From a virus (taxonomy: Duplodnaviria; Caudoviricetes): DNA of 48,589 bases. The notes beneath the pieces are model-generated. The model searched no databases and had not been told where the DNA came from. It saw only the letters and a list, made by a program, of their open reading frames with translations. The translations under genes were made by a program, and so were the position numbers. Location of the stretch: positions 1-48,589 of IMG/VR virus record IMGVR_UViG_3300025389_000029; one strand, 5' to 3'. Positions 1-48,589 of this stretch are shown in pieces. Numbering within the stretch: position 1 is the first letter of the stretch; each line of letters starts with the position of its first letter.

Positions 1-223
1 AATCAATGCCATCAATAGTAAAAAGCAATCCTCTAGTGGCAACCGATTGAGAACTAGGAATGCGATTCCAAAAGTAAGTGGCGGCTAATATATTAGTATT
101 AGAACTTATACCAGCTAAACTTAGTAGTAAGGTAGAACCAACCGCCAAATTACCAGCCATGTAGTTAGCACCAACACCACTAGCGTACAAGTTGTAGTTG
201 CTTGCGTTGGTGAGGTTGAGCTG
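1..223 (+). repeat. Direct repeat copy 1 (tail-fibre internal segment)
   Basis: 1-127 identical to 34826-34952; mismatches at 128, 130, 174, 209 and 218; similarity ends after about 223. Confidence 0.97.
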
Positions 224-643
224 GCTTGACGCTGAGAGTGTAGTGAATTTTCCTGTAGATGCTGTTGTTGCACCTATTGGCGTGTTGTCTATAGTTCCGC
301 CCGTAACAGTAATATTGCTTACTGATACGTTAGTAATGTTGATTGAGCCGCTGGAAATCGTAACGTTGCTTAACGTTAGGTTTGCAAGACTTGTTGCTGT
401 TCCACCCAAACTTACGTTTGTTGTTCCAAGTGTTAATGAACTATTTGCTAAATAACTATTTGGAAACGTTGTAGCAACACTAGAAATTGTTGCGTTTGTA
501 AGCGTTAAATTTCCAAGGCTAGTCGTTGTGTTTCCAAGATAAATAGCGGTGTTACCAAGGGTAATTGCTGTAGCAAAGTTTGAATCCAACTGCGAAAGTG
601 GAATTGATGTGGTCGCTGTAGCAAATGTATATGGAACGGTCAT
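1..643 (-). CDS. Tail fibre of phage A, N-terminal 214 codons (runs off the window edge; continues in frame at 34825-33951 if circular, 505 aa)
   Basis: Not in the ORF track. ATG at 643 overlaps the upstream stop (TAATG). Translates MTVPYTFATATTSIPLSQLDSNF...QLNLTNASNYNLYASGVGANYMAGNLAVG, the same segment and frame as in ORF 33951-36176. Confidence 0.85.
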   Translation of the reverse strand, partial: MTVPYTFATATTSIPLSQLDSNFATAITLGNTAIYLGNTTTSLGNLTLTNATISSVATTFPNSYLANSSLTLGTTNVSLGGTATSLANLTLSNVTISSGSINITNVSVSNITVTGGTIDNTPIGATTASTGKFTTLSASSQLNLTNASNYNLYASGVGANYMAGNLAVGSTLLLSLAGISSNTNILAATYFWNRIPSSQSVATRGLLFTIDGID

Positions 644-2637
644 TAGAACCTCACTCTTAATTCATGTTCAAATTCAAATCCGTTGATAACAAAATTTGGA
701 TTACTTGATGTTACTGTGATTCCCAAGTATTTTCCATATTGTGACGCATCGGTTTTGTACAATTCATATCCAACGGTTGCCCATCCAATTGTTGCGTTTG
801 CGTTATTTGTCCAAACGACAACTTGCGATGAATTATTGAGCCAAGAAATTAAACTGGTCAAATAATATGGTGGGCTAGAACCGTTCTCGTAATCAATCGT
901 GGCATTAAAAGCAACCGGACTGGTCGCAGACGCAGTTGCTTCAATACCCATCTTTAATGCTTGTTTAGTGCGAATAGGATCGCCCATTGGCAATAATGCC
1001 GTTTGAATCCTGCTAGTAATCGTAGTGCTTGTGTCTTGATACAATTTATACAGCGTATTGCTTTGTGTACCAAACAAAGTGATTTTTCCGGCGATAGGTA
1101 CGGAATCAACAAATGCCATGCTATCGCCCTGAGATGTAATAAACCATTTCTTTTCAAAGAAAACGGCTTGCACATAACGATAACTATTTGTAAATATTGC
1201 GTCAAAATATCTAAAGTTGAACGCAGCGCACAAAATGTTGTTCAACAATACTTGTCCGGCGTAAATCGGGTAATTAAAGTCAATATTTGGAAACATTCCG
1301 TCTAGCGAATCAGAAATCTTTGATGTGGTTGAACCAACAAGCGCATACACTCCATAATCGTTCAAAAACAGCACAGAACGAAAATATGGAAAAATTGCAT
1401 TGGCTCTACGGCTACCAACGGATGCAGACACGTTAGTATTTGTAAATAGGGTCACACCAGTAGTATCTACCCGAACATCCGAAAAGACGTTGATAGAATC
1501 ATCGCCAAAAATGTACAAAAAGTTATTTGCAGACAAAATTTGCTGAATATTTCCATGCAACGTGGAATCCGTTAAAACAAACGACCCTGCCGATACACTT
1601 GTAAAGTCTGTGTAAGAATCTGCCGCCGAATAATAAATTGTTCGACCAGCCGCAATAAATACTCGACCACTAAACGTAGCAATACCAATATTGACATTAG
1701 TATTTACAATTCCTTGCAATACTGCGCCTGTACCGCCACCACCCGCAACTGTAACTACAAGGTTAGCCGCATTGGTGTATCCCGATCCGGGATTAGTCAT
1801 AACGACTTGCGTAATTTGACCGCCAGACAATACTGCCGTACCAGCAGCATTTGTTCCACCACCACCAGAAAAAGTTACGACAGTGTTTGCTGAATTTGTA
1901 TATCCGGTTCCTCCAGATACAACAACAGCCGATACTGTGCCGGTAGCAAATGTAATTACTCCTGCAATAGCCGTAGCATTGCTTCCACCGCCACCAGATA
2001 TAGTGACAGAAGGAGGAGGAACTCCGTAGCCTGATCCTGCGTTTTGCAATTGAACAAGGGAAACCGCGCCTGAAGTAATTGCCACGGTAGCGTTGGCTTG
2101 AACACCGTTTGAATCTAAAGGTGCGGCAATAACGACCGTTGGGTTTCCTGTATATCCGCTGCCAGGATTAGTTACGGCAATGACACCAACAGAGCCTACG
2201 CTAACAACGTTTTTTCCATCCCATGTGAAATAACCCTTGTAAGGGTCAAGAATAAGCATACGCTCATTTTTCCACTGGCTTATTTGTATTCCAGAATTAG
2301 AAAACGTTCCTGCAACAGCAACGTTTCCTGTAGCACCTGTTGTGACGTTGTAATACTCTGCACGACCATCCGCTTCAAATGCAACGACATAATCATCAAG
2401 ATCAATATTGCATGATGTTAAATGCGTAACAGTGTTTCCCCAAACAACAGCATTTCCAAGCGTATTTTTTGCTGTTACTGCGTTTGGAGTAATTTTTAAG
2501 TTTGCGTAACCAATTGGCTGTGCGTTTTCAAGCCAAGAAAATTCATCTTCTTCAATAGCCGTACGGTTAGCCTTGGTGTTAATACCTTTAAATTGCTTAA
2601 CAACCTTATAACTCTTTTTCTGTTCAGCAGTTGCCAT
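643..2637 (-). CDS. Tail nozzle / DNA stabilisation protein (P22 gp10-like position) with inserted Gly/Thr-rich repeat domain
   Basis: 664 aa beta-rich protein after the adaptor, FKGINT near the N-terminus, four (N/S)xG(S/T)GY repeats. Confidence 0.6.
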   Translation of the reverse strand: MATAEQKKSYKVVKQFKGINTKANRTAIEEDEFSWLENAQPIGYANLKITPNAVTAKNTLGNAVVWGNTVTHLTSCNIDLDDYVVAFEADGRAEYYNVTTGATGNVAVAGTFSNSGIQISQWKNERMLILDPYKGYFTWDGKNVVSVGSVGVIAVTNPGSGYTGNPTVVIAAPLDSNGVQANATVAITSGAVSLVQLQNAGSGYGVPPPSVTISGGGGSNATAIAGVITFATGTVSAVVVSGGTGYTNSANTVVTFSGGGGTNAAGTAVLSGGQITQVVMTNPGSGYTNAANLVVTVAGGGGTGAVLQGIVNTNVNIGIATFSGRVFIAAGRTIYYSAADSYTDFTSVSAGSFVLTDSTLHGNIQQILSANNFLYIFGDDSINVFSDVRVDTTGVTLFTNTNVSASVGSRRANAIFPYFRSVLFLNDYGVYALVGSTTSKISDSLDGMFPNIDFNYPIYAGQVLLNNILCAAFNFRYFDAIFTNSYRYVQAVFFEKKWFITSQGDSMAFVDSVPIAGKITLFGTQSNTLYKLYQDTSTTITSRIQTALLPMGDPIRTKQALKMGIEATASATSPVAFNATIDYENGSSPPYYLTSLISWLNNSSQVVVWTNNANATIGWATVGYELYKTDASQYGKYLGITVTSSNPNFVINGFEFEHELRVRF

Positions 2638-2639
2638 AA

Positions 2640-3515
2640 TTAAAAGCCATTACTGTAGACAGAAGGTATACGGCGGGTATACACCGAATTCAAAATAGAT
2701 GTAGCTTGCTTGACATACTCTTGCTTGTAAATTTCAGCTTCGCCAAACGATTGCTCGTAATATTTGGCTAAATAAGCCGCATAGAATTTAGGAGCAGATG
2801 TGTATGGGTCTTGAATCTGATCTGGAGTTGTTGAAGCGTTCAATGACAATGGTGTTGGCAAAATAACAGTATCAATTTCAACTTGATACGACTGATCCGG
2901 TATGGGACCAATATAAATAGTATTTTGACCGTACACAGAATACGCAACAGGTCTACCAATGTAATTTTGCCAGAAACGTAAACGAGCATTAAAGTCAGAC
3001 CAAGCCAAATAATCAAGTGGTACACGCGAATTGCCCCAATACAAGTTGATATTCACAATATCAAGCGTGTTTTGACCTTGGGGTAAAGTCGAATACGGTA
3101 TTTGTTCGCAATTTCCAACATACGTTAAGCCACAAGTTCCATTAAAAAACTCTGTCGTTGGAGGATAATTGGTATTGCCTTGAGGATACGCAGGAGCCAT
3201 TGCATCCGTAGTTCCTGCCGTAGTTATTTGATATACATAAATGTTAGAAAACAAAAATGTATTAAGAGGATAAGCAGTCGATGCCGCCCACGCAATCGGA
3301 TTGGTAGGCGTGATGCCACCAACAGTTGAGGCTTGAGGAACGGGTGCAGGAACTTGCGTAACTTGAATAGTACGCAAACAGCCAGTATCACGAACAACAC
3401 GTTCCCGTGCTGAGTTAATGTAATCTGTTAGCTGCGAATCCGAATAGAAATTGCCATTGGCATCATGCAGCAAACGTCTAACTTCGGTAATGTATCCCGA
3501 TAAGTTTTGCGACAT
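2640..3515 (-). CDS. Head-tail adaptor / tail tubular protein
   Basis: 291 aa with N-terminal YITEVRRLL..DSQLTDYINSA, GRPVAY..IYIGPIPD and a helical C-terminus; lies between capsid and nozzle. Confidence 0.6.
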   Translation of the reverse strand: MSQNLSGYITEVRRLLHDANGNFYSDSQLTDYINSARERVVRDTGCLRTIQVTQVPAPVPQASTVGGITPTNPIAWAASTAYPLNTFLFSNIYVYQITTAGTTDAMAPAYPQGNTNYPPTTEFFNGTCGLTYVGNCEQIPYSTLPQGQNTLDIVNINLYWGNSRVPLDYLAWSDFNARLRFWQNYIGRPVAYSVYGQNTIYIGPIPDQSYQVEIDTVILPTPLSLNASTTPDQIQDPYTSAPKFYAAYLAKYYEQSFGEAEIYKQEYVKQATSILNSVYTRRIPSVYSNGF

Positions 3516-4705: not shown

Positions 4706-5716
4706 TTAGATTGCAATTGAGTTATAGCCAGAAACACGGGTCATCGACTTGGGCTTGGTTGATACCAATTCCGCAATCATCAACACTGCGCCGACATAAC
4801 CGATCTGCCAGTTTGGAAGAGTCGATTCAAAGCCGGTGAACACAAACGAACCTTGTTCGTGAATGTACAGCGAGAGATAGTTGCTGTTGATGAAATAAAC
4901 AGTACCTTCTGGGCAATATGGATCAGGATAGATCGGCACACCGGCAACCATCAGGGCGCGGAAAGCAGCCTGTGGACCGTTGCTGTCACCATCAAAGCCA
5001 GAGCCGGGGGTAATGACGTATTGTTCCTGACCAACGTAGTCTTGAGCAAGCAGCGTCCAAGTACCAAAGCCGCAAACACCAAAAGTAGGAACTTCTGCAC
5101 CGTTTTTAACGGTTCCAGAAATGTACTGAAGAATGTTTTGACGAGTTGGGTTGACGCTACCAGCGTTATAGACTTTCGACTTCCACCATGTGTAGGTGGA
5201 ACGGTTGATGTTGCCGTATGTAGGCAAGTTTGTACCGTCATCAATTGCACCGGGCAAACCGATGAATTGCTGAGTGTTGGTGTAGTTGGTATACAGAGCC
5301 GTAGCCATTGCATCCATCATCACGTTCGTTGCGTCATTCATACGCGCTTCGATTAGAGGAATAATAGCGTAGTCTTGTTGTACCGCACCTTCCATACCGA
5401 GGAATGGAACAGGAGCAATCATCAGCTTGAGGTTGAACTCAGCATTGAAAGCACCTTGCTGAACTGAAGGCTGGTTAAATGAACCAGAGTAATCAGACCA
5501 TTGTGCGTTTACAAACTGTGCGCCCTGAACGGGGACAGTAACTTGGCTCACACCGCCTGATGCTTGCTGACTGTTAGCAATCAGAGCAGCCATAAGGGGG
5601 GTTGAGTTGTAAAGTTGAACAACCAGCTTAGGGATAAATGCCCGTCTGGTAACATAGGTAAGTTCGTTGTATTGCGAACTACCGCTTGCTGGTAAAATTC
5701 CGCCACCAATAGGCAT
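4706..5716 (-). CDS. Major capsid protein of phage A (HK97 fold expected)
   Basis: 336 aa following the scaffold. Motifs IPKLVVQLY..PL, GLPGAIDDG..YGNINR..WWKS and GVPIYPDPYCP.GTVYFIN.NYL are typical of podovirus coat proteins. Confidence 0.85.
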   Translation of the reverse strand: MPIGGGILPASGSSQYNELTYVTRRAFIPKLVVQLYNSTPLMAALIANSQQASGGVSQVTVPVQGAQFVNAQWSDYSGSFNQPSVQQGAFNAEFNLKLMIAPVPFLGMEGAVQQDYAIIPLIEARMNDATNVMMDAMATALYTNYTNTQQFIGLPGAIDDGTNLPTYGNINRSTYTWWKSKVYNAGSVNPTRQNILQYISGTVKNGAEVPTFGVCGFGTWTLLAQDYVGQEQYVITPGSGFDGDSNGPQAAFRALMVAGVPIYPDPYCPEGTVYFINSNYLSLYIHEQGSFVFTGFESTLPNWQIGYVGAVLMIAELVSTKPKSMTRVSGYNSIAI

Positions 5717-7193: not shown

Positions 7194-7232
7194 TTACTTG
7201 CGTGATTTACGACCTTTACGAGCTTTACGCAT
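7194..7232 (-). CDS. 12-aa Arg/Lys-rich peptide MRKARKGRKSRK
   Basis: ATG CGT AAA GCT CGT AAA GGT CGT AAA TCA CGC AAG TAA, preceded by GGAG at 6 nt spacing. Confidence 0.6.
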   Translation of the reverse strand: MRKARKGRKSRK

Positions 7233-7310: not shown

Positions 7311-7472
7311 TTACATACCTCTGGTATTGCTTCTTGCCCCGCGAGTTTTATCTCGTGGTGCAGTTTTAATATTTGTAACACGATATTGAACAGATGTGGG
7401 GGCTTCACCACGTTTTAAATTTGCTGTGGTTACTCTAGGTTGATCTGATTTAGGTTGCGTTTCGCTTGCCAT
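7311..7472 (-). CDS. 53-aa basic hypothetical protein (MASETQPKSDQPRV...GARSNTRGM)
   Basis: Translated by hand; starts 2 nt after the portal stop. Confidence 0.65.
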   Translation of the reverse strand: MASETQPKSDQPRVTTANLKRGEAPTSVQYRVTNIKTAPRDKTRGARSNTRGM

Positions 7473-7474: not shown

Positions 7475-9097
7475 TTACCCCGCCACTTTTAAGTCTGGTT
7501 TGCCTTGAGGCTTTGGTGCAGCTTTTTCTTCCTCTTGACGTTTTTTCAGTTTGTCTTTTAACAACTGTTTCATCGGTGGCTCTAGCATATCAAGCAGAGA
7601 TTCTTTGTCAATAGCTTGAGCCTTGAACAATGAAAACGCCAATTCTTTTGTATCTTCAGTAAAGATTGGGCTGTTAGAGTGAGCATCCACTTTAACGACA
7701 AAATCGCGTGTAAATTGTTCCGCAATGAAAGGTACGCCCTCGGTATCTTTGAAGTGCGTGGCATCGTAGGCTTGCATCAGTTTGAGATAGAGTGTTGCTA
7801 CTTTTTCCAAACTATCTTCGATAATGAGGGCGCGTTTTTTAGCCCGGCTAGAACCTAGTCGCGCAAGTTGGGATGCGTGTCCACTTGAGCGAACACCTGA
7901 TTCGCCTTTGCCGGACAACACGTTGTTGATGCCCGATGCTTCCATGAACATAGAATCAACTTCATGGATGACACCAAACAGATCATTAGGAATTTCTGGA
8001 GCCAAACGATCTACTTTCATGTTTGGCATATCTGTTGCAATCAAACCACCTGCACGGTTAAGCGCAAAATTCTTTTCATCAATAATGCCGCTAAAGCCAG
8101 ACAATGCTGTTGGGGGCGCAACTTGCTTAGACAAAAGATCAAGAATCTCTGTCATGCGATTAGTTCGTAGCTGTTGCAACAAAACAAGTTTCTGACACTC
8201 GGACTGTCCCCAAAAGTAACCAGGCAAAGGGTCTGGACAGAGTTGCACAAAAGGACACTCGCCTTTAAGGAACACGCTTGCACCTGGACGATCATAAATA
8301 ATCACATCAGGTGAAGCAATCGTTACAACTTGATAGTCCTCAGTTTCATCGTTCCACACCCACAACTCTTGCATCTCAATTGTTTCTTCAGCAACACGAG
8401 CGTTGTAGCGGTTCTCTCCAAACAAATCCATTTCCACGTTACCGTAGATTGTTGGATTGGTTGCAGACATAATAATTCTCGCAACACCATCGCCATTACC
8501 TTCTTCAGATTGGCTTGATCCTTTGATGTTGCCTGTGACTCGGCTCACAATAGATTCACGCTTGGGATGCGAATACAAACGAGCATACAACTCTGAGCGT
8601 GTTATGTAATAGCGTTGGCAGATTGCTTCTTGACGGTCTGTGTATGGAACGTCTTCACGCAACACGCCCATAGCACTTGGTTCAATCATGTAAGGGTGTA
8701 TGCCCTTGTTGATTACAAGTTTTACAAAGGTTGTGTTGTAAACCAATGCCCATGTCAGAGCAGTTGAGAATACTTGGTCTGCGTTACTGTTGAGCCATTC
8801 ATCGTTTAGTGCGCTGGTTAGCACTGGTGTCTTACGATGTTCTGCGTGAGGAACTGCTGCCCCCAAAGAGATACTAAACCGTGTGCTTTCTGCGGAATAC
8901 AAAAAACTGGTTAGCTGATCTAAGTGGGGGTGAATCTTATTAAAGATTGCAGGAGGTTGTTCAAGTCCCGAACCGAATAAATAGTAAGCGCGTAACACGC
9001 TGTAGTCAGACTTTCGTTCTTCTCTGGACACCATACATTTCTGCATAATGTCCAAATAAAAGTTTTCTCTATCTTCGGCTTTGGTTGGGATACGCAT
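7475..9097 (-). CDS. Portal protein of phage A
   Basis: 540 aa between terminase and scaffold. Motifs FNKI.PH+DQL, CPFV..P.PGYFWG.S and EASGINNVLSG...GVRS match podovirus portals. Confidence 0.85.
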   Translation of the reverse strand: MRIPTKAEDRENFYLDIMQKCMVSREERKSDYSVLRAYYLFGSGLEQPPAIFNKIHPHLDQLTSFLYSAESTRFSISLGAAVPHAEHRKTPVLTSALNDEWLNSNADQVFSTALTWALVYNTTFVKLVINKGIHPYMIEPSAMGVLREDVPYTDRQEAICQRYYITRSELYARLYSHPKRESIVSRVTGNIKGSSQSEEGNGDGVARIIMSATNPTIYGNVEMDLFGENRYNARVAEETIEMQELWVWNDETEDYQVVTIASPDVIIYDRPGASVFLKGECPFVQLCPDPLPGYFWGQSECQKLVLLQQLRTNRMTEILDLLSKQVAPPTALSGFSGIIDEKNFALNRAGGLIATDMPNMKVDRLAPEIPNDLFGVIHEVDSMFMEASGINNVLSGKGESGVRSSGHASQLARLGSSRAKKRALIIEDSLEKVATLYLKLMQAYDATHFKDTEGVPFIAEQFTRDFVVKVDAHSNSPIFTEDTKELAFSLFKAQAIDKESLLDMLEPPMKQLLKDKLKKRQEEEKAAPKPQGKPDLKVAG

Positions 9098-9671: not shown

Positions 9672-10097
9672 CTATCCCCTATCTAATTGCTCATCTAACG
9701 TTTCAGAATATTCAGCCTTATTTCTAATGCCTAGTTTTAGTTTAATCTCACCGCCTACTACTTGTAAACCATAACCTCTTGCAAACCTTGGTTTGGGTTC
9801 TTTTCTATAATCAACAAATCTTGTTCTGTCTTTGTTTTGCATTACAACAAGTTCACCATTGAGCCATTGTTTGTATGCTTTTGATACTCTGCGTTGAACA
9901 ATCTCTGACATTTCATGCTTTTCGTAAATGAAAATCATCGCCATGTTTTCGCGGGTTAAACCTGCTATTTCAGCAAAGTGTTCAAGTGAAATGCCACGAT
10001 TTTTGTCAGCAAAGAACCGTTTCATAATCCGCATGAGTTCGGATTTAGGCAGCACTTCCTCCGTATATCCCGATCTTCTTGAGATAGTCTGAGACAT
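9672..10097 (-). CDS. Hypothetical protein with possible HTH
   Basis: GISLEHFAEIAGLTRENM resembles a helix-turn-helix; start uncertain. Confidence 0.55.
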   Translation of the reverse strand: MSQTISRRSGYTEEVLPKSELMRIMKRFFADKNRGISLEHFAEIAGLTRENMAMIFIYEKHEMSEIVQRRVSKAYKQWLNGELVVMQNKDRTRFVDYRKEPKPRFARGYGLQVVGGEIKLKLGIRNKAEYSETLDEQLDRG

Positions 10098-33053: not shown

Positions 33054-33069
33054 GATATTTCCTTTTAAG

Positions 33070-33928: not shown

Positions 33929-33950
33929 TTACTTCTCCTTTGTTCAGGGA

Positions 33951-36176: not shown

Positions 36177-36177
36177 G

Positions 36178-37063: not shown

Positions 37064-37065
37064 GA

Positions 37066-38661: not shown

Positions 38662-38662
38662 G

Positions 38663-41317
38663 TTAAGCCTGCGACTCTTGCCAGCTCAGACGAGCCAGAA
38701 TGGTTGAGTTACCACCGCTGACGTTGTTGGCAACGACGTACAGCACATCAGGGCCGTCTGGGAACTGACCGACGTTACTCGTAGGCACAGTGTTGTTCAA
38801 TCCGCCACCCAAGATCGCGTTACCGATACCAGAAATTGCGGTCAAGTCCAGTGTAGTCTGACCAGTGCTATTTGTGAACGCAGCACCGATTGATTCGCCA
38901 CCCGTGAATGTTGCAGCAGTGTTTGTCTGCGTTGCAATTTGAACGATTGAGCTTGTCACAGTGTTGTTCTGTGTTGGCGACTGGAACGAACCCCATGTAG
39001 GTGTACCAGTTGTGTAACCGTTCAGAATCAACTGAATCAGGAACGTGCCAGTAGTCACCACGCCAAGTTCGCGCAATTGCAACTGGAGGCGGTTGATGAC
39101 TTCCTTGTTGCCCAAAATGCCGACCTGACCGTTATCCACCGAAGGAGCAAGTCGAATTGCCAGAATTGGCACGGCAGTACCGTTTGCAACTGTCACAGCA
39201 GACTGTGTACCGTAGTTATAAATCAACGATACGTCGTTGCTGAATCCACCGTCCATAACTACTGACGAACCCCAGTGCGAGATTACCGCGACTGAATCTG
39301 GTGGAGCATATTCAACAGAAACGGGAGGGATGGCGTTTGTCGATGGGAATACTGCAGTGAATGCAGATGCCGCTCCGCCGCCTGTCACGCCGCGAGTCAC
39401 GCCAGTGAACTGGTCGTAAGCCAAGCCTGATTGAGCTGCAGTCGTAATTCCAGAGTATGTTGCATATTCAACCGCACCACCGTTTGCTGCGGCTGTGAGC
39501 TTGATCGTTCCACCTGCTGGGTTAAACCCTGCTGCACTCACTACTGGGATGGTTGTAGCACCGCTTGTAATCGTTGAGTACAGTGATGTGATTGAAGCCT
39601 GACCGCTCGACTCATAGCGCGATGGTAGGTTACCAGAGCGCATGTAGGCGTTGTATTGAATGTTGTTGCTCTGGAATGAATACACATATGCAATAGCGCC
39701 TTGCGTCGTGCGCAAACCGAAGCGTGCAACACCAGCACCGTACCACGAGTAGTCGATGAACCACATCTGGTTTTTGGTGAGGTCGAGGTTGTAGCCAGAA
39801 GGCCCTGTCCCGTCGAGCGGGTCATACCATTGCGATTGTGGCACTCGCGTGTCGATTGTCTTTGATACCAGCGCGTTCGCAATTGTCTGACCGCGATACT
39901 CTGGGCTGATGTACAAAGATGTATCGCTTGCAATGCTCAGCACGCGATATGACTGACCACGGATCACGATGTAATCGCCGGGGGCGAGCTGGTTCGTGAA
40001 CACCGTACCAGTACCAGTAACCGCACCGCTACCTTGCGTGACAGACACAGTGCCGCTCAACTGGTTGATCGAGTTGCGCCATACCGCATAAAGCGTCTGA
40101 CCATCAAACTGGAAAAACAAACCGTTCTGCGAATCAAAGAATCCGATCTTGTTGCTCGAGCCATACCATGAGTATGGGCTCACGGTGACAGGTAATCCAA
40201 TCGACGTAAGTGCTGGGCTGGCAGTCGGGACAATAGTGTTTGCAGTGACATATGTCAGCGTTGTGGCTGACGGTACTGTGGCAATCTTAAAGATGCCGTT
40301 GTATGCAGGAACAACTGCATCGCTTACTTTGATGTAAGACCCTACCGTCATGTTGTGCGCCCAGCGGGTCGTCACAGTGACAGTGGTGTTAGATAAGTTG
40401 TTAGTGACTGACGAAACAAACAAGCGTGGTTTCAGGATCGAGCCTGTCGAAAACTGAATACCTTTACCTGATTGATAGCGGAAGTAACGACGTGTCTGAC
40501 GAACCATCAATTGGTTTGGTACAGCAGCGCCAGCAGTGAAGTTTACCGAACCGTCATAGGCGCGGGTCTCAACATATCCAGAAGGACGCGCATAGACGTT
40601 GTTTTGTGCATTGGCGGTCGTTGTGACTGTACCTGATGCGCCTGTTGTAGCGATAGTGAATTGATTAGCGGTTGGAACAGTTGCAACAACCCAAGCACCA
40701 TTGACACCTGTGCCGCCTGTCGTGTTTGCAATATACACATACGATCCAGCAGACAAGCCGTGAGGCGCGACCGTGTTAACCGTGATTGCTGTACCGCTAG
40801 TCGTGATGGCGGTGGTGCTTGCAGTTGCTACAGCGATACCAGCGTTGGTGAAGAAGAAACCGGGGTACACATAAGTCGCTGTGGCATTGTATTGGTTGCC
40901 TGATGCGACTACGCTTGTGGTGACAATCGTAAACGATGTGCCGCCTGTCGACGCTGTGACATACCACCAGCCGTTGGCGTTGGTGTCCAGAGCGTCTTCA
41001 ATAAAAACAGGAGTTCCGACTGCCACGGTTGCCGTGGTGGAAACTACAACTGTTGTTGTGCCGTTACCCGTAATTGCGGTGACAGGCACAGGACTTGTCT
41101 GAAAGTAGTAGCAGCTCTGGCGGTTGTTCTGGAGCGACAATTGCTCCCACTTGCTTGGCTGCTGACCGTATTCAAAGTCAGTATCAATCAGTGATTGAGG
41201 GGTTGAAACGCGCAACTTATCAACAGGATCGTATGCAGCAGACCGTTGCGAGGTCTGAATGCGCATCTGGTTATCCGTGTTGGAGGTTGGCCCTGTGTAG
41301 GAAACGATTTGACCCAT
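38663..41317 (-). CDS. Large virion structural protein with repeated beta modules
   Basis: 884 aa; KLRVS.PQSLIDTDFEYG.Q..KWE N-terminus; repeated T...H....G..V......NG...V..V.....F modules; ends W.E.QA. Confidence 0.65.
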   Translation of the reverse strand: MGQIVSYTGPTSNTDNQMRIQTSQRSAAYDPVDKLRVSTPQSLIDTDFEYGQQPSKWEQLSLQNNRQSCYYFQTSPVPVTAITGNGTTTVVVSTTATVAVGTPVFIEDALDTNANGWWYVTASTGGTSFTIVTTSVVASGNQYNATATYVYPGFFFTNAGIAVATASTTAITTSGTAITVNTVAPHGLSAGSYVYIANTTGGTGVNGAWVVATVPTANQFTIATTGASGTVTTTANAQNNVYARPSGYVETRAYDGSVNFTAGAAVPNQLMVRQTRRYFRYQSGKGIQFSTGSILKPRLFVSSVTNNLSNTTVTVTTRWAHNMTVGSYIKVSDAVVPAYNGIFKIATVPSATTLTYVTANTIVPTASPALTSIGLPVTVSPYSWYGSSNKIGFFDSQNGLFFQFDGQTLYAVWRNSINQLSGTVSVTQGSGAVTGTGTVFTNQLAPGDYIVIRGQSYRVLSIASDTSLYISPEYRGQTIANALVSKTIDTRVPQSQWYDPLDGTGPSGYNLDLTKNQMWFIDYSWYGAGVARFGLRTTQGAIAYVYSFQSNNIQYNAYMRSGNLPSRYESSGQASITSLYSTITSGATTIPVVSAAGFNPAGGTIKLTAAANGGAVEYATYSGITTAAQSGLAYDQFTGVTRGVTGGGAASAFTAVFPSTNAIPPVSVEYAPPDSVAVISHWGSSVVMDGGFSNDVSLIYNYGTQSAVTVANGTAVPILAIRLAPSVDNGQVGILGNKEVINRLQLQLRELGVVTTGTFLIQLILNGYTTGTPTWGSFQSPTQNNTVTSSIVQIATQTNTAATFTGGESIGAAFTNSTGQTTLDLTAISGIGNAILGGGLNNTVPTSNVGQFPDGPDVLYVVANNVSGGNSTILARLSWQESQA

Positions 41318-41347
41318 GTCTCACCTATTGAATTCGAGAATTTTCGC

Positions 41348-41372
41348 AAAACAGGGGGCGATTACACCCCCC
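41348..41372 (-). terminator. Rho-independent terminator
   Basis: Minus strand GGGGGTG-TAAT-CGCCCCC-TGTTTT directly after the 41381 stop. Confidence 0.7.
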
Positions 41373-41380
41373 GCTTGACT

Positions 41381-42154
41381 TTACCAGCTACCGCCTTTCT
41401 TACCAGCTTTGAAGCCGTCACCACCCTTGCAAGCCATCGCAACATGACCGCCAGTCTTGTAACCAGCAGGAGCTTGTTTGATGCTTTTTGTGCCGAAGGG
41501 TTTGGTAGGCATTTTGCCGTTGCCATGCATCATCGTATTTTCATACTTTGCTACAGAGCCACCCTTTGCATAACCGCGACCTTCGAGCTTGCCAGTCTTG
41601 GTATTGAAACCCTTAACTTGCTTGGCTTCTACGACTTTGGTGTTTGCATACTTTGCAATTTTTCCACCACTCTTGTAGCCGACGCCTTCAATGCCACCCG
41701 TCACGCGCTTGGGGTTTGCGCGAGTAGCTTCAATGCCGCCGAGAAGACCACCGGGAACATCGTTCTCAACCTTGCCGCCAACTCTCAAACCCTTGTGAGC
41801 TTTGCTTGCTGGCTTGCCTTCGTGAGATTTCAGTTCTTTCTTGATGCCTTTGATCTCGCGCTCTTCTTTGGCTTCCATTGATTTGCTCTCGACTTCGCCG
41901 CCTTTCTTGCGTGCCATAGCTTGAGCAGGCATGCCCGGTGCTGGACGCACTGGAGCACGCGATGCCATCATTGAAGCGCCACGAGGACGTGCAGCCGCCA
42001 AGCGTGCAGCCAGCTCAGGAGCAGCGCCCATTGCTGGAGCAGCCGATGGCAATGCGCCACCGATTGCTTTCTTGGCAACACCACCTTTTTTCAGTTTGAG
42101 TTCAACTGAAGGCTCGGTGGTTTCCATCTTTGGCATTGGTTTAAATTGACCCAT
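41381..42154 (-). CDS. Basic Lys/Gly-rich protein with many xxGG motifs (candidate core protein)
   Basis: 257 aa with LKKGG, RKKGG, LRVGG, YKSGG, YAKGG, YKTGG; AGGAG RBS. Confidence 0.7.
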   Translation of the reverse strand: MGQFKPMPKMETTEPSVELKLKKGGVAKKAIGGALPSAAPAMGAAPELAARLAAARPRGASMMASRAPVRPAPGMPAQAMARKKGGEVESKSMEAKEEREIKGIKKELKSHEGKPASKAHKGLRVGGKVENDVPGGLLGGIEATRANPKRVTGGIEGVGYKSGGKIAKYANTKVVEAKQVKGFNTKTGKLEGRGYAKGGSVAKYENTMMHGNGKMPTKPFGTKSIKQAPAGYKTGGHVAMACKGGDGFKAGKKGGSW

Positions 42155-42167
42155 GACGAGCTCCTAA

Positions 42168-43139
42168 TTAGGCTTGTGTGACGCCAAGAGCGCCAGTGCG
42201 GGTTGCATTTGGGCCAATCGCAATCGCTGGCAACATGATGCCAACAACAAGGCGCTTGATACCGTCAGGTGCGCTAGATGGGCTGAATGTGCCGCGAACG
42301 TCGCCTGTGGTAGTGGTAGCGGTAGTTTGCACAGCAGCAGCGAATGTACCGCTGTCGATTGCAAAACCGTTGTTCCAACCAACGTGGCAGATGTAAGCGC
42401 CATCATTCACGCGAACTGGAAAACCCAGCAACTGAGTTGTGCCGACCGTGACAGCGGTTGTCGAAGCGCCTGCACCAGAAATTGAAGTGATCTGGTAGAA
42501 CGCTTTTTTACCGTTTGTCGTGGCTGCAGCAACCGACGTGATTACTTCGCTCATAGCCTGACCATAGTAGTCAAAGCCAGTGATCGTGTAAGCGCGTGCT
42601 GTACCGCCAGTGACCAGCGAGACTGAAACTACGCGTGGGCAATCAAGCTGAATGACAGTAGTTCCATCAGCGCGGACAACAGATTTTGTTCCTGCGCCTG
42701 CTGTCAGGGTCAGGTTACCTGCGGCTGCAGGAGTCTGAGTTGCGGCGATGTTTGATGTCGACGAAGTTTGTGGCACGACGTCCCAGACGTAGATGCGACC
42801 AAGAGGACCAACACCCAAGTCCATTGGAGCTGGATCACCAAGGTAAGCGTTACCAGAAGCAGTAATGGTGATAGCACCAGTTGCCGAGGATGATGCGCTT
42901 ACAGTGTATGTACCAACACCGCCAGTACCTGTACCGAATGCAGTGATATACGAGCCTGCGGTTACGCCAGTACCTGAAACGTATTGACCGAGCACGATAG
43001 GATCGCCAGACAGCATTGCTGTGACGGTCATTGTGGTTGTTGTGATCGAACCTGCGAACGTGGCAGTAATCGATGATGGCGCAATACCCATAAAGGTTTG
43101 CGCGTTACCTAAGAATAGGTCGTCTGAAAATTGAGGCAT
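42168..43139 (-). CDS. Putative virion structural/decoration protein
   Basis: 323 aa Thr/Ala/Gly-rich, directly after the major capsid gene. Confidence 0.65.
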
Positions 43140-43170
43140 GTCGTCTGCTCCATGAAAAGTATGACGAATT

Positions 43171-43198
43171 AAAAAAGGGGGTAGGTTTCCCCACCCCC
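43171..43198 (-). terminator. Rho-independent terminator after major capsid gene
   Basis: Minus strand GGGGGTGGG-GAAA-CCTACCCCC-TTTTTT. Confidence 0.85.
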
Positions 43199-43204
43199 GT
43201 TTGC

Positions 43205-44119
43205 TTACACTCCGGGCGTACCGAACATGGCGCGTGGATCAGTCCACGACAACCAGTAACGCTCAGTTGCTTTGTAGCGCATCGAGTCTGTCTCGAAGTC
43301 GCCTTCCATAGTCTTCTCGAGACCACGGCGCATCATCAACTTCATGCCTTCTGGTGCGTCGGTTTGTACCCACCAGTTGGTTGCTGAAGTCAAACGGCTT
43401 ATAACAGCAGCGCCTTCAGGCATCAGACCAATCGACTTGACTGGGTTGATGTCGTTGTTGGCAGTGCCAGTACGCAGAACCGATTTCAGCAGAACTTCGG
43501 CTTGGAACACGTTACCGGGGGCAACGACCAGCTTCAGTGGCTGAAGACGAATCTTCTTACCGTTGTTATCCACAGCCGAACGAACCTGAATCAACATTTG
43601 CTCAAGCGATGTCTGCGAAAGGTTCGCAGCAGTAGCCAGCAAGTTGCTGAATGTGCCGTTGACGATTGGATGGTTTGATGCGCTCAACTGTACGCCGTCA
43701 CCGCCCGTGTAGGAACTGTTGAATGCGTTGTTGAGGACGTTTGCTGCCAGCGTCTCTTTGGTCTCAACCAGTGACTGAGCCAAGTGCTTTGCATAAACCT
43801 GACCGATACGAATGTGATCGCCGTCTTCGACCAGAACTTTCGTCAGAGCGAAAGCCAGACCGTAGACCTTGTACACATAGCGCTGCAGGAACAGAACGCC
43901 GCCCTGCTGATACGATACAGGAGTACCGTCAGGCAGTTCAGGTGCTGCGCCGAAGCCGTACAGTACGGGTTCTTCGTGGTAGTTACGGGGAATGCCCATC
44001 TGCTCACGGAAAACCTGTGACCATTCATCTGAGCGCAGATCATAGACTCCGTCGAAACATTCATTGAGAATTGGCTCAACGATGCTTCGGAAGTCGGTAC
44101 TTCTCATTGGAGCTGCCAT
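43205..44119 (-). CDS. Major capsid protein of phage B
   Basis: 304 aa with EE....GFG.AP...G....Y, ETKE..AANVLN.AF, GGDG..L....HP, LS..SLE, P.KL.V.P, DFET...RYKA.ERY..W.DPR; followed by a terminator. Confidence 0.88.
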
Positions 44120-44133
44120 TTTGTCATCTCCCC

Positions 44134-44721
44134 TTAGATAGCGTTAACGGTTGAAATGAACTGTGGCTTGCTGACCTGTACGCGAACTACGACGTATGGA
44201 TCACCCCAGTTGTTGCCCGGAATCGGAGCAAGGTCAACAATACGGAATTGACCAGCAGAACCTGAACCGACCAGTGAGGCGGAGAGGGTCATCTGTGACA
44301 AACCTGTAGTTGTCGAACCAGCAGTGAAGTTGCTCAGGTTGGCTTCGTTACCGATAGCTGTTTGAGCCATAGTGCCGTCTGTCTGGATTTCATAAACGAT
44401 CTGTTGATCATTGTAGAAATAAGCGACGATACTACCTGCGATTGCAGTGGTGGAGGCGGGCCAATAATTCGACACGCGACGACGACCAGTTGTATCTGTC
44501 CACTCTACGCCAGCAAAGCTGCCAGAGACGAGACCAGAGTTTGTGGTTGTATCCAGAACTGGAAGAATGACACCAGCGTTTGGCGAATACTGGACAGCCT
44601 GACCTTTCAGGATGTTCGTAGCATAGCCAGAGGTAATTCCGTTGGCAAGCGCCTGAGCACGATCCAAGCCAGTTGGATGAAATGCAGGTCGCAGACCAAA
44701 AGGTGCAGAGGTTGCACTCAT
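44134..44721 (-). CDS. Putative minor capsid / cement protein
   Basis: 195 aa with APFGLRP, G.F.GVE.TD and GST.TG.S; directly upstream of the capsid gene; AGGAG RBS. Confidence 0.65.
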   Translation of the reverse strand: MSATSAPFGLRPAFHPTGLDRAQALANGITSGYATNILKGQAVQYSPNAGVILPVLDTTTNSGLVSGSFAGVEWTDTTGRRRVSNYWPASTTAIAGSIVAYFYNDQQIVYEIQTDGTMAQTAIGNEANLSNFTAGSTTTGLSQMTLSASLVGSGSAGQFRIVDLAPIPGNNWGDPYVVVRVQVSKPQFISTVNAI

Positions 44722-44756
44722 AGGATGCTCCTAAAAATAGTTGAAGGACAATTTTG

Positions 44757-44875
44757 TTTTCGGCTTTATTCAAAGCATCAGGCAAAATCACCTTGGAACG
44801 TGATTTTTAGGGTACTAATTCTGTTGATCACCCGCCTTGTACAAAGCAGGTGATCTTTCGAGCATTATGCACTCA
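44757..44875 (-). promoter_or_regulatory. Multi-hairpin leader upstream of capsid operon
   Basis: Minus-strand stems GATCACCTGCTT/AGGCGGGTGATC, AAAATCAC/GTGATTTT and GCTTT/AAAGC. Confidence 0.5.
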
Positions 44876-44895
44876 ATAAATAAATAAAACAACCA

Positions 44896-45432
44896 TTATT
44901 CAAAGAATGGCGCAGGCGCATCTTTCTCGCCATCGATCAGGTCACCTTCGGCGCGAATCAAGCTCTTGCCATTGCTGTCGCGAGCTGAATTCAGCAGTTG
45001 TTCTTGCTGAACGCGAATCTTGCCTGCCTCTTCCATTGGTTGATAGTGATGCTTCTCAGCCATGTAATCCTGATAGATATCCATCGGGAGTTTGTAGAGG
45101 ATCATCTCGTTGCAGGAGATGTGACCGACGTGCTCACCTTCCTTGACCTTGAGGTGCTCCATACCCTCGAGCTCATCGCACAACACCGCCTGATAACCCA
45201 AGCGCATGCGGCTGTGGATGGTGTCGTACTGGTTGGTGGTCGATAACCAGCAGTAATGCCAGTTTGGATCGCCTACTACCTTCGGCAGCGCTTCCTGAGT
45301 GAACTCTGACTGGAAGCGACGACGACGGGTTGGTGCTGATGCCAGTGCATCATCAGCCGAGGCGCGTGATTTGTCTACTGCTGCGCGGTTTTGACGACCT
45401 GCGCCACTGTTCTTACGGATACGGTCATCCAT
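44896..45432 (-). CDS. Hypothetical head-module protein
   Basis: 178 aa with LP.....WHYCWL.....D....R.RLGY..V and EM.L.K.P. Confidence 0.7.
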   Translation of the reverse strand: MDDRIRKNSGAGRQNRAAVDKSRASADDALASAPTRRRRFQSEFTQEALPKVVGDPNWHYCWLSTTNQYDTIHSRMRLGYQAVLCDELEGMEHLKVKEGEHVGHISCNEMILYKLPMDIYQDYMAEKHHYQPMEEAGKIRVQQEQLLNSARDSNGKSLIRAEGDLIDGEKDAPAPFFE

Positions 45433-45434
45433 GA

Positions 45435-46421
45435 TTATCTTCCTTTGTTCTGACGGTCATATTCAACAAAGCGCTGGATCATTTTCTTGCGCTTCTCTGG
45501 ATCATCCCACACACCCATCTCTTTGATGGCGGCAACACGCTCTGGAGAGAGTGTGAAGTTGTTCCCGCTGCGTGTAGGTGACGATTCCCTGCCTGTGCCT
45601 GTGACGGCTGAGCGTGGACGCTCTCGTTGCATGGTTGCACCCCGTTTGTTGCCACTATCGTAGCGATGTGGCAGATATTTCGACAGGCGCGTGTCCAATT
45701 CATCCCAATAATCTGGGCTGGATGGGTCATACCCCTCTGCTGTCAGACGCTTATCAATCGTTTGCGTCATTTCAGAGTCGATATCCTTGCCTGCGGGGTC
45801 ATACCATGTGTTTTTAGCCATCCAATCTGCTGCATTACGCTGCACAGTGGGGTCGGGAAGCTGAATATTCTGTCTCTGGGGCTGAGACATCTGCTTCGTG
45901 GCGTTTTCCTTGATGTTTTTGAGTGCTTCATACTTTCGCATCGACTCATACATCAATTCCTGCGCACGAACCATCGACTCGCCGTCCTGAGACGCGACCG
46001 CTTCCTTCATTTTCATCTTGGCGTACTCAATCTGCACCTGCGTGTCGTCCATCACCTTCTCGACACGCGCTAATTCAGCGCCAGATGTGCGTGTTTCGAG
46101 GTTTGCAAGCCTCTCCGCCAACTGTTGATTCTGCTTTTTGAGGGCATTGATCAAATGGTTGGACTCTTTCGCCTTCTCGCGGTGAATTTGCTTCTTGAGT
46201 TTGCGCTCTTCGCGACGTGCTTCACGGATCGCCTCACGATCAGGGTCATTATTCAGACCATCATCGCCTTCGTCACCGTCATCATCGTCGTCTACAGAGC
46301 CGCCTTGTGCCATTGGCTGCGCTTCTGGCTTTGCATCACCCTCTTCCAAGGGCAATTCGACCGTCGCGCTACCGTCTGACGCCTCTTCGACCTGCATTTC
46401 CATCTTATCTGTTGAGTTCAT
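45435..46421 (-). CDS. Putative scaffolding protein of phage B
   Basis: 328 aa with an acidic N-terminus, long coiled coil, W...N.WY, GYDP.S.DYW.ELD.R and a C-terminal helix-turn-helix. Confidence 0.7.
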   Translation of the reverse strand: MNSTDKMEMQVEEASDGSATVELPLEEGDAKPEAQPMAQGGSVDDDDDGDEGDDGLNNDPDREAIREARREERKLKKQIHREKAKESNHLINALKKQNQQLAERLANLETRTSGAELARVEKVMDDTQVQIEYAKMKMKEAVASQDGESMVRAQELMYESMRKYEALKNIKENATKQMSQPQRQNIQLPDPTVQRNAADWMAKNTWYDPAGKDIDSEMTQTIDKRLTAEGYDPSSPDYWDELDTRLSKYLPHRYDSGNKRGATMQRERPRSAVTGTGRESSPTRSGNNFTLSPERVAAIKEMGVWDDPEKRKKMIQRFVEYDRQNKGR

Positions 46422-46864
46422 GCTGTTTCCTTAATTAAACATTCAGAAACAATTTTTTTGGATGACATTGTTGAAACAATAGCTTGCGCCATAATCAATA
46501 ATTGATCATCATTCATAATGTTTCTAAATGCATTTACGCACATACAAACAAGTCGCACGTTCCCATGAACATAATCTTTTTCATTATCTATTCTGTCCAC
46601 AGAAATAGACGTTGGCGTAGTTTTTCCGCCAGCCCAAGTCATACGAACTCCAGATAATGCGCAACAACCTTCTTGCTGATCGTAAATTTCCATTAAATAT
46701 TCAATGTCAATTTCTACGTTTCTACGCCTTTTCGCTTGTTGCAAAATTGCATTAAAACTTTGGGTTGGCGTTTTTTTATGACGTGCCTTCTGTTTTGCTA
46801 ATTGCTCTGCTTTGTTACGTTGAAACCAATCAGCGTGGTATTGTTGCTTTTTGAGTTTGTCCAT
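46418..46864 (-). CDS. HNH-type homing endonuclease
   Basis: Q.G.CALSG, S.DRID....Y..GNV.LVC...N; AT-rich island in a GC-rich operon. Confidence 0.8.
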   Translation of the reverse strand: MDKLKKQQYHADWFQRNKAEQLAKQKARHKKTPTQSFNAILQQAKRRRNVEIDIEYLMEIYDQQEGCCALSGVRMTWAGGKTTPTSISVDRIDNEKDYVHGNVRLVCMCVNAFRNIMNDDQLLIMAQAIVSTMSSKKIVSECLIKETA

Positions 46865-47271
46865 TACAGGAACGCCTTAACTTTCAAGGGATCGCCAGTC
46901 ACCTTAGAGATGACCTCATGATCGTTAAAAACGGAGAACAGCGCCATGTTTTGCTCGCCATTCACCACCTCACCGTAGGGTACTTCCCATCGGTCACCGC
47001 CCCATTTTGGAACGCGCACATAATCGCCCACTTCTGCCCAAGTGCCTTCAGCCCAAGGGAGTAAAGTGTCGCGGTTTTTGTATGCAAGGGGGCCAAGCGC
47101 GACGATTTTCGCTACTTGCGTGTTCCACTTCTCGGTCTCCTTGGTGTCTTCCACCAAAATGATTCCGCTGTCCGTGGTTTTCTTTGGGACTTGCTTGAAC
47201 TGAACTAATACCCGACCACCAAGGGGGGTACAGCCAGAGTCTACGGATGGAAATGCTTCTTCAAGCGTCAT
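46864..47271 (-). CDS. GroES-like co-chaperonin
   Basis: PLGGRVLV, T.SGIIL, IVALGP, VGDYV....GG, +ND.EVI..V. Confidence 0.85.
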   Translation of the reverse strand: MTLEEAFPSVDSGCTPLGGRVLVQFKQVPKKTTDSGIILVEDTKETEKWNTQVAKIVALGPLAYKNRDTLLPWAEGTWAEVGDYVRVPKWGGDRWEVPYGEVVNGEQNMALFSVFNDHEVISKVTGDPLKVKAFL

Positions 47272-47321
47272 TCGACACTCCTTTTCAATAGCTCTATTCA
47301 GAGCGGGTGGTACTACAAACT

Positions 47322-47489
47322 TCAGTCTTCCTTCAGCAGCTCATCGAGAATATCCAGAGCTTCTCCAAGCCCCTGATAAATCCCTACCATTCTCTGGTAT
47401 GACTCGATATTTATAGCGTTGCCGTTGGCAAGCGAGAGGGCGATCTCGTCGCGCCTCTGCTTGAGTTGATGGATTAGCCTACCTTCCAC
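47322..47489 (-). CDS. Small helical hypothetical protein
   Basis: L..G.A...E.Y.R.VG...GL..AL pattern upstream of the GroES-like gene; GTG start uncertain. Confidence 0.6.
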   Translation of the reverse strand: MEGRLIHQLKQRRDEIALSLANGNAINIESYQRMVGIYQGLGEALDILDELLKED

Positions 47490-47781
47490 GACCTGCCGCC
47501 TTGCGCATAGGTACAGCGATGGCAACTGTCAAGCCGACACCCTTTTTAGGAGGCACAGCGCCGCCTTTCTTCAGGGTAGCAATCTTGCCAGCCATACCTG
47601 CTGCTGGGCGTGCGAGTGGTGGGGGCGATGAGTTCTTTGCTGGCAGAGTTGACACGCCTTTCTCAGACATGACTGCGCCGCCTTTGGCGAATTTAGCTAC
47701 TTTGCCGCCAGACTTCATGGTGTTTGCTTCGCCCATGCCATACATAGCCATGCGCTTGTGCATACGAATTGCTTCAGACAT
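47479..47781 (-). CDS. Basic 100-aa protein with three xxGG motifs
   Basis: ATG 47781 with AAGGAG RBS; MKSGG, FAKGG, LKKGG. Confidence 0.7.
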   Translation of the reverse strand: MSEAIRMHKRMAMYGMGEANTMKSGGKVAKFAKGGAVMSEKGVSTLPAKNSSPPPLARPAAGMAGKIATLKKGGAVPPKKGVGLTVAIAVPMRKAAGRGR

Positions 47782-48589
47782 TTTGTACTCCTTCAGGTGG
47801 TTGGGGTTGTTGCGCAGCCTGCTGTGCGGCAAGTTGCTGTACTTGTTGCGCTTGCTGCGCCTGCTGTGCCATAGCAGCCTGCTGTTCGGCTTGCTGCTGT
47901 TGCATTTCAAATTGCTTCTCAATCGTCAGGACATTGACATCATGAGTGATCTCCGCTGCCTTCTCTTGCTCGGCGGCGACCAATTCCTGCATCTTGAGCT
48001 TGCCGTCTTGCGCGAGCTTAGCTTGATCAAGCTGGATGCGTTGCTGATCTGCCTGACCTTTGCGCTGCGTCTCAGCCATCTGCGTCTGCACCAGCGCCTG
48101 TACTGACGGATCAGTAGGTTGCTGCTGCTGGCGGAGCTGCTGCATCATCTGCATCATTTGCTGCATGACTGGCTGGACTCCACCGAACTGCTGTGGGACG
48201 TCCATAAATACATGCTGCGAGGATGCCGCGAGCAACTGCTGGGCTTCTTTGATGATTGGCTCTTCCTTCAGGATGTTGAACTTGCGACCAAGCGCTTGGC
48301 TGGTGTGCATGTCCATCTGATCCAGATACCAGAGAGTCAGGTGCTGCTTGAGGTGCTCCAGACCTGCAGGCATGAACACAGGCGCGATGATTGGGTTTGA
48401 GCCATACATCGGGTTTCGTGCGTAGTCGAGCAGGACTTGGATGTGCGCGAGGTGGTCTTGACCGGGGAACGCGCCGACGGGTTTACCCAGCGTCATTGCC
48501 ACGTTCTCTAGCGCAGGGTTCATCTGCTTAACATCTTGCGGATCAGGTAGCACTTCATTCGTATCAGGAATCTTGAGCTGCTTAAGAAT
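47774..48589 (-). CDS. Portal protein of phage B, C-terminal part (5' truncated)
   Basis: Frame open to the window edge (ILKQLKIPD...). ENVAM..GKP..AFP.QDH.AHI..L motif and a Gln-rich coiled-coil barrel; lies upstream of scaffold and capsid. Confidence 0.75.
   Translation of the reverse strand: MLKQLKIPDTNEVLPDPQDVKQMNPALENVAMTLGKPVGAFPGQDHLAHIQVLLDYARNPMYGSNPIIAPVFMPAGLEHLKQHLTLWYLDQMDMHTSQALGRKFNILKEEPIIKEAQQLLAASSQHVFMDVPQQFGGVQPVMQQMMQMMQQLRQQQQPTDPSVQALVQTQMAETQRKGQADQQRIQLDQAKLAQDGKLKMQELVAAEQEKAAEITHDVNVLTIEKQFEMQQQQAEQQAAMAQQAQQAQQVQQLAAQQAAQQPQPPEGVQNV

Follow-up and report, generated by a model that had tools for sequence, protein, structure and literature searches.

An apparently two-headed phage record as a very probable assembly chimera of two unrelated freshwater phages

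The window analysed here is the whole of the IMG/VR virus record IMGVR_UViG_3300025389_000029 (48,589 nucleotides), in which two sets of phage head genes lie on either side of a putative tail-fibre gene. The record consists of a complete circular genome (34,825 bp), here called phage A, followed by a 13.5-kb piece of an unrelated and larger genome of about 56 kb, here called phage B. It is classed by IMG/VR as linear, without end repeats and with 100% completeness; Rfam and ARAGORN gave no matches within the window. The features are listed below (loci from other assemblies carry L numbers, public sequencing runs X numbers).

1-34825, no strand: phage A, one complete circle, a podovirus-type genome of ~35 kb
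1-223, no strand: N-terminal side of the shared fibre tract as present in A, 97.8% identical to 34826-35048
1-127, no strand: final 127-mer of the exact core common to A and B, the fork vertex of the k=127 de Bruijn graph
2-643, minus: A probable tail fibre, N-terminal part (505 aa once the circle is closed)
2640-3515, minus: A head-tail adaptor (PF24175 SU10_adaptor, E 3e-9)
4706-5716, minus: A major capsid protein (phrog_9953, E 9e-36)
7475-9097, minus: A portal (PF23899 SU10_portal, E 1e-12; phrog_1216)
10045-11862, minus: A terminase large subunit (phrog_24361, E 6e-10)
18306-20809, plus: A recombination genes, RecE-like exonuclease, RecT and RusA (phrog_434, PF03837, PF05866)
22400-23343, minus: A lysis genes, an endolysin (GH108) and a holin 74% identical to that of B
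33951-34660, minus: C-terminal repeat region of the A fibre, not common to B (L003 and L151 diverge)
33951-36176, minus: hybrid 741-aa ORF, with a B N-terminus, the shared tract and an A C-terminus; product of the join
34661-35048, minus: full extent of the fibre tract common to A and B (388 bp, 10 mismatches), in which two conserved motifs flank a variable cassette
34696-34952, no strand: exact 257-bp A/B core, the point of genome joining (L151, L153 and L003 exact to 34696)
35049-48589, no strand: phage B fragment, 13.5 kb of ~56 kb (L151, L033, L034, L155 and L156 match at ~100%)
43205-44119, minus: B major capsid protein (PF25209, E 1e-10)
46864-47271, minus: B GroES co-chaperonin (PF00166)
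47774-48589, minus: B portal, C-terminal 271 of 858 aa, cut by the record end (full length in L156)

Both major capsid genes named in the initial annotation are supported by profile matches, as are its two portals, the second of them through the full 858-aa protein in L156 (phrog_1216, E 3e-19), upstream of which lies B's own terminase; the fragment 47774-48589 taken alone matched no profile. The two scaffolds and the B adaptor that had been read into the window found no profile support, and the SU10_adaptor match of B falls outside it, at L151:14621-15250. The paired head proteins had also been described as lacking mutual similarity, which holds for the capsids (best pairwise BLASTP E 1.6) and, by BLASTP, for the portals (best E 0.08), yet the portals are, judged by their profiles, distant kin, since both match phrog_1216. 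Terminase, portal, capsid and lysis genes are present separately in A and in B. A shift near position 35050 had been noted in both GC content and ribosome-binding-site style; the former is confirmed (42.7% across 224-34695 vs 51.1% across 35049-48589), while the latter is not seen in a simple Shine-Dalgarno count (10 of 17 genes in A, 9 of 14 in B). The similarity of the holins and of the DUF7936 proteins (75%) hints at a common host of the two phages.

The suggestion that joining 34825 to position 1 gives an intact 34,825-bp genome proved correct. L150 covers window positions 33911-34825 followed by 1-854, differing from them at a single position out of 1,769 nt, so that A closes across this junction, and the closure opens a 505-aa fibre frame, found as the same ORF in L150. 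Five relatives of A, complete or nearly so, measure 35.7-36.8 kb, have direct terminal repeats in four cases and lack the fibre module of A. The capsids of the uncultured freshwater phages MW202753.1 (35,640 bp) and MW202825.1 (34,188 bp), of similar genome size, are 89.9% and 88.7% identical to that of A, and an estimated ~1,900 stored IMG/VR stretches match the A capsid patterns; among 11 matching records, none from a cultured phage exceeds 28% capsid identity. The A capsid also matches contigs in four species genomes (labelled as beta proteobacterium in two cases, Saccharibacteria in one and Terrimicrobiaceae in one). Stray phage contigs are common in such genome bins, and because of this and the conflict among the labels, the assignment of a host to A from bin labels was rejected and none is given.

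The record stops at 48589 inside the B portal, beyond which L155 and L156 continue, agreeing over 864 nt. The gene list of B was pieced together from L151, the window and L156. The capsid of B is 77.3% identical to that of Caulobacter phage RW (MK929790.1) and 86.2% to that of MW202545.1, with Pelagibacter phage HTVC023P (41.7%) and Roseobacter phage CRP-901 (~42%) as more distant relatives. The gene order of RW is as in B, namely terminase, an unnamed 828-codon gene, GroES (annotated, upstream of the capsid gene) and capsid gene, in a genome of 62 kb as against ~56 kb; the likeness of B to an RW/HTVC023P-type group rests on capsid identity and this local gene order. L151 (a 55,996-bp contig), L033, L034, L155 and L156 hold no near-identical A-specific DNA. 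In a cross-check with positive controls, the B capsid gene was found in 0 of 5 A-type genomes and the A capsid gene in 0 of 5 B-type records, and the complete relatives carry one capsid type each, at ~36 kb or 57-59 kb.

The junction itself was examined at the level of the repeat. As originally noted, bases 1-223 recur at 34826-35048, with an exact match over the first 127 nt; when the window is compared with itself by blastn, no other match reaches E<1e-3 (E 1e-105 for this one). The shared segment had been placed at 32800-35050 and was taken to include a common fibre C-terminus; it is in fact 34696-35048, comprising the exact core and its continuation. The stretch 33951-34660 is the fibre end of A alone, with A-only depth in runs X1, X2 and X19, and B has a C-terminus of its own in a 929-aa fibre (L003, L151). 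The 741-aa fibre ORF, absent from every other assembly examined, is a false protein made by the join. With the core continuing for 130 bp to the left of 34826, there is no biological reason for the record to start at that point. A de Bruijn graph of both genomes supplies one: among 15 values of k, k=127 alone puts the fork-out on A position 1. The graph links the two genomes for k values as high as 257 and no longer does so at 259. End overlaps of 127 bp are described as a SPAdes artefact (PMC5923482). Logan contigs in X1 and X2 break at 34696/34725 and 35004/35033.

Other assemblies allowed the paths through the core to be followed independently. The core occurs in four metagenome records, and all three other than the window's own are pure paths, A-core-A in L150 and B-core-B in L151 and L153; the sole viral record with the core, L003, is also B-core-B and is the same contig as L153. 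The A-B path was seen in the window's own record only. Four of the 251 loci are that record, and among the other 247 near-identical DNA was A-only in 2, B-only in 8 and from both in none.

A comparison of depth over the two parts and the shared piece had been proposed in the initial annotation, and it was carried out on public runs, of which 8 of the 24 listed were examined, as contigs (the 16 left out include 3 with a share under 0.2); the 24 are alike in year and habitat, possibly stem from one campaign, and X1 and X2 are possibly the source of the window. Contig-level depth in X1 was 51.2 for A, 26.4 for B and 79.7 for the shared piece, and in X2 it was 40.6, 17.9 and 56.7, i.e., an A:B ratio of about 2:1 and near-additive depth in both, two outcomes that the initial annotation had named as refuting a real cointegrate. 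These values carry short-contig noise: with the flanking A contigs of X1 (62, 60) the expected sum becomes 87-89 against the 79.7 observed, and a 117-bp A-right contig of X2 stands at 54 against 40.6. In X1 the fork is flanked by short A contigs at depths of 62.2 and 60.3, which leaves no surplus on the A-left side to feed B. Co-abundance, also proposed at the outset, separates the two phages, with B at 45 in X14, 98-114 in X16 and 35-42 in X17 and the A-specific bins at depth 0 in all three, each of which yields one contig running from B through the core to B's own C-terminus. In X19 a contig runs from A-left through the core and carries A alleles. The converse, high depth of A in the complete absence of B, was not seen in any run; patchy B at 2.6-4.3 is present in X18 and X19.

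A stable single genome with two head modules, either a dual-capsid phage or a helper that carries an integrated satellite, would agree with one contiguous record of 100% listed completeness and with an ORF open across the join. It is contradicted by the runs in which B reaches up to 114x alone, the 2:1 ratio in two others and the 55,996-bp B contig, and further by the two full sets of terminase, portal, capsid and lysis genes, the occurrence of both capsid genes in 0 of 10 relative records, and a linear end without repeats within a portal that L155 and L156 continue. A dual-capsid genome or stable cointegrate, an alternative that the initial annotation had kept alongside, was accordingly rejected in view of the depths, the separate assemblies and the relatives, and its probability is negligible. 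The two-headed phage suggested by two capsid and portal sets is most likely an artefact that does not exist.

A second alternative is a rare, real recombinant or cointegrate, formed in a co-infected cell by a single crossover in the shared tract, of which a minority molecule was assembled. The exact homology of 257 bp is long enough for recombination, A encodes RecE, RecT and RusA, A and B co-occur in the same runs, and Rad52-like recombinases have been shown to produce phage mosaics (PMC3945230). The contigs of the runs, with overlaps of 30 nt, cannot phase the 257-bp core, so that rare A-B molecules would be invisible in them. Such a molecule is very improbable nonetheless: A plus B accounts for the depth of the core without an A-left surplus, none of the other 3 metagenome records has the A-core-B path, and the start of the contig lies in mid-core, on the k=127 fork, rather than where a second full copy of the tract would be expected. 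Packaging is limited by capsid volume, and a 91-kb fusion would be larger than the sizes of both families (36 kb; 57-59 kb). The bolder idea that co-infection of one host in the source water by phages of 35 and 56 kb from unrelated families yields real RecET-made fusions at the shared cassette, the record then being a snapshot of an intermediate in cross-family cassette transfer, is just as hard to credit.

The record is thus almost certainly an assembly chimera of two unrelated freshwater phages, as the initial annotation had favoured on the strength of the 127-mer node. A-A and B-B paths are separate elsewhere, the contigs of public runs form an X-shaped fork, depth is unequal and additive, B occurs without A, and the k=127 fork coincides with the contig start. 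A de Bruijn assembler would have made one full lap of A, entered the shared stretch and exited into B, leaving A unclosed. That it was of SPAdes type with k=127 is what we infer, as is its wrong choice of exit; a literature search on the JGI k-mer list returned no papers, which leaves the assembler at this standing. With its listing as a linear virus of 100% completeness, the record would mislead analyses of gene content, taxonomy and host, and it should be split into the complete 34,825-bp circle and the 13.5-kb fragment. Similar records can be screened for by first 127 bases that recur internally, with a shift in GC and another capsid gene after the recurrence.

The fibre stretch shared by A and B is real, and is the only real residue of the two-headed layout. 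It is probably part of a tail fibre, as suggested by where the gene lies, by its repeats and by a PHROG tail match nearby. The match, to phrog_31460 ("tail protein"), covers residues 286-384 of the B fibre only; the 505-aa A protein matched no profile, and a PDB sequence search for the fibre gave one match, at E 0.64. A structure predicted for the cassette and repeats from a 14-sequence alignment (mean pLDDT 48.6, pTM 0.20) was too poor for a fold search, and this low-confidence model shows strand-rich repeats of roughly 57 residues. The 388-bp tract with its 10 mismatches lies in genomes whose capsids and portals show no BLASTP similarity, and relatives enclose different cassettes between the same two conserved motifs. 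A cassette of ~85 residues has recently been exchanged between unrelated phages, an ordinary and known kind of mosaicism. It likely moved by homologous recombination at the flanking motifs, probably into B, as argued from GC3, and a RecET-type system such as that of A perhaps helped; such a transfer would imply a shared host. Recent sharing of a fibre cassette by two unrelated lake phages is the small real result of this record.

Both parts of this interpretation have described counterparts. Repeat-mediated chimeric contigs from short-read metagenomes, as presented in PMC10104058, likewise involve a repeat longer than k that is common to two genomes; according to the same source and PMC5923482, they enter by one genome and leave by the other, with a k-long overlap at the start and additive depth over the repeat. 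In principle the window is no different from the usual case, but the first genome was run as a full circle, so that its start could pass for an internal repeat, not a terminal one. Tail-fibre module exchange, as covered in PMC8265664, shows the features seen in A and B, i.e., a near-identical internal tract in phages with unrelated capsids, conserved borders and other segments in relatives; the tip of the T4 long fibre versus the lambda side fibre is also cited there, and a recombination route for such exchange is given in PMC3945230. The part exchanged between A and B differs in being an internal cassette of ~85 residues upstream of the C-terminal repeats and not the distal tip.

The arrangement of two phage heads in one sequence, for which the initial annotation favoured an assembly chimera and named a real cointegrate as the alternative, is most likely not a real feature; what remains as real is a recent fibre-cassette exchange, of the ordinary kind. 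The repeat reported at 1-223 and 34826-35048 was recovered at 97.8% identity, with the first 127 bases exact, and is the sole long self-match of the window. The full gene set of a ~35-kb phage (A, 1-34825) lies to the left of the repeat copy 34826-35048, and a second head module, from a ~56-kb phage (B, 35049-48589), to the right. L156 in the list is a locus fetched from sequence collections.

Head, recombination and lysis genes of A and head module of B (position, product, profile match)
2640-3515, A adaptor, PF24175
4706-5716, A capsid, phrog_9953
7475-9097, A portal, PF23899; also phrog_1216
10045-11862, A terminase
18306-20809, A RecE/RecT/RusA
22400-23343, A endolysin and holin
43205-44119, B capsid, PF25209
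46864-47271 (-), B GroES, PF00166
47774-48589, B portal, cut, phrog_1216 (for the full-length protein in L156)

The capsids and portals had been described as showing no mutual similarity, which is correct by BLASTP (best E 1.6 and 0.08, respectively), but the portals of both phages nevertheless match phrog_1216. The proposed shift in GC content is present (42.7% in A vs 51.1% in B); a shift in RBS style was not seen in a simple Shine-Dalgarno count (10/17 genes in A vs 9/14 in B), and profile support was absent for the two proposed scaffolds and for a B adaptor within the window. A 13-codon ORF (7194-7232, -) with a GGAG motif upstream, encoding a 12-residue Arg/Lys-rich peptide, sits between the A portal and the next head gene, and a second short basic ORF of ~53 codons (7311-7472, -; read by eye) directly follows the A portal gene. 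Glycosyltransferase-like and O-methyltransferase genes of A (20910-22410, +) adjoin its lysis cassette. GroES is inside the B head module, as in Caulobacter phage RW, and an 875-aa gene of unknown kind (L156:832-3459) separates the B terminase and portal. Two endonuclease VII/HNH-like genes in the B structural module (36500-37063 and 46418-46864, both -) and an HNH-AP2 endonuclease gene of A (16513-17103, +) are probably homing endonucleases.

Elsewhere, A and B were assembled apart. In a metagenome collection, a 29-base pattern taken from the repeat matched five loci in four records, two of the loci being the window's own record. Locus L150 follows the window from 33911 to 34825 and then from 1 to 854 with one mismatch in 1,769 bases; A therefore closes into a 34,825-bp circle, as the initial annotation had proposed. 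Loci L151 (from a 55,996-bp contig) and L153 (the same contig as L003 and L252 of the viral collection) match B exactly down to 34696, below which they diverge into another fibre C-terminus and other downstream genes. It follows from these three paths that the B fibre has 929 aa and the A fibre 505 aa, and that the 741-aa ORF spanning the join combines parts of the two. L156 shows that B encodes a portal (858 aa) and a terminase of its own, and L151 likewise a separate holin and adaptor. Among 251 loci, four came from the window's record; at 95% identity over 300 bases, the other 247 included two with A only, eight with B only and none with both. None of five A-type genomes, which measure 35.7-36.8 kb and in four cases have direct terminal repeats, contained the B capsid gene, and the four of them retested all had that of A at 94-98%. 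Each of five B-type records, among them one genome of 57.2 kb and one complete genome of 58.7 kb, had the B capsid gene (91-100%) but not that of A.

The exact core common to A and B, 257 bp of a probable tail-fibre gene (34696-34952), reaches 130 bases left of the window-start point (34826). When de Bruijn graphs were built from circular A and L151 at 15 k values, the fork out of the core fell on A position 1 at k=127 only, in agreement with the earlier reading of a 127-mer node, and the two graphs came apart at k=259. The fork value is an arithmetic consequence of the 127 exact bases; an independent point is that the record begins mid-core, exactly one 127-mer ahead of the fork, i.e., at a graph-edge start. 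A SPAdes artefact with 127-bp overlaps at contig ends has been described (PMC5923482), as have repeats as a cause of chimeric phage contigs (PMC10104058). The assembler was presumably of the SPAdes type; a literature search found no paper giving the pipeline's k list.

Part of 30500-39500 was present in 24 public freshwater runs, eight of which were examined, all as contigs; the runs may be one campaign. Depth over A, B and the shared contig (34696-35033) was 51.2, 26.4 and 79.7 in X1 and 40.6, 17.9 and 56.7 in X2, so that A and B are unequal and sum over the shared piece, short-contig depths being noisy (A pieces beside the fork gave 62, 60 and 54). In both runs, which may be the window's source, the contigs form an X-shaped fork, with breaks at 34696/34725 and 35004/35033, and window 224 onward matches a loose end at 35048. 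A-specific bins had depth 0 in X14, X16 and X17, where B stood at 45, 98-114 and 35-42 and a single contig led through the core into B's own C-terminus. This occurrence of B without A speaks against a linked genome. A rare true A-B recombinant is very improbable, although contigs of this kind cannot be phased across the 257-bp core. B reached ~110 in X10, where A was represented by a single 324-bp contig at depth 4.4; X18 and X19 had A at 4-6 and B patchy at 2.6-4.3, and one X19 contig ran from 34152 through the core to A alleles. A minor B strain variant (35298-35427; five linked substitutions, 35328-35397) made up ~1/4 of the depth in X10, X16 and X17.

The shared segment itself is real (34661-35048; 388 bp, ten mismatches, every one outside the core), but it is not the shared C-terminus it was taken for, as L151 and L153 leave it into B's different C-terminus. 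Its centre encodes ~85 residues, complete only in the A and B loci among 242 compared. Relatives retain both flanking motifs around other cassettes (e.g., L009 and L031; also L005 and L071-L073, all four with fibres that start like A's); in G008 and G009, close relatives of B, both motifs are present and the cassette is missing. GC3 is 0.30 in the tract, 0.29 in the A fibre N-terminus and 0.52 in that of B, and since the tract is A-like and not B-like, this composition suggests that B received it by exchange. Recombination by Rad52-like proteins such as RecT at conserved borders is a demonstrated route to phage mosaics (PMC3945230). A and B further resemble each other in their holins (74%) and DUF7936 proteins (75%), which would be compatible with one host for both. 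The protein of the tract is likely, from its position and repeats, a receptor-binding fibre. Among profiles, phrog_31460 (tail protein) matches the B fibre over residues 286-384 only and none matches the A protein; a PDB sequence search gave no match below E 0.6, and a structure model reached a mean pLDDT of 48.6. Downstream of the variable cassette and its conserved motifs lies a module of ~55-residue tandem repeats, covered by no Pfam family in A or B, which in freshwater phages is fused to many different, unrelated N-termini (L003, L005, L007-L009, L016-L018, L024, L029, L031, L071-L073, L150 and L248); it was absent from the five A-type genomes and from B-type G012. A second tail protein of A (31380-32483, -) contains a 62-residue stretch 64.5% identical to the N-terminal part of the B fibre, a second, older module common to both.

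The closest GenBank phages to A are MW202753.1 and MW202825.1 (capsid 89-90% identical); those to B are MW202545.1 (capsid 86%) and Caulobacter phage RW (77%), followed at a greater distance by CRP-901 and HTVC023P (~42%). RW also matches B in local gene order, GroES included.
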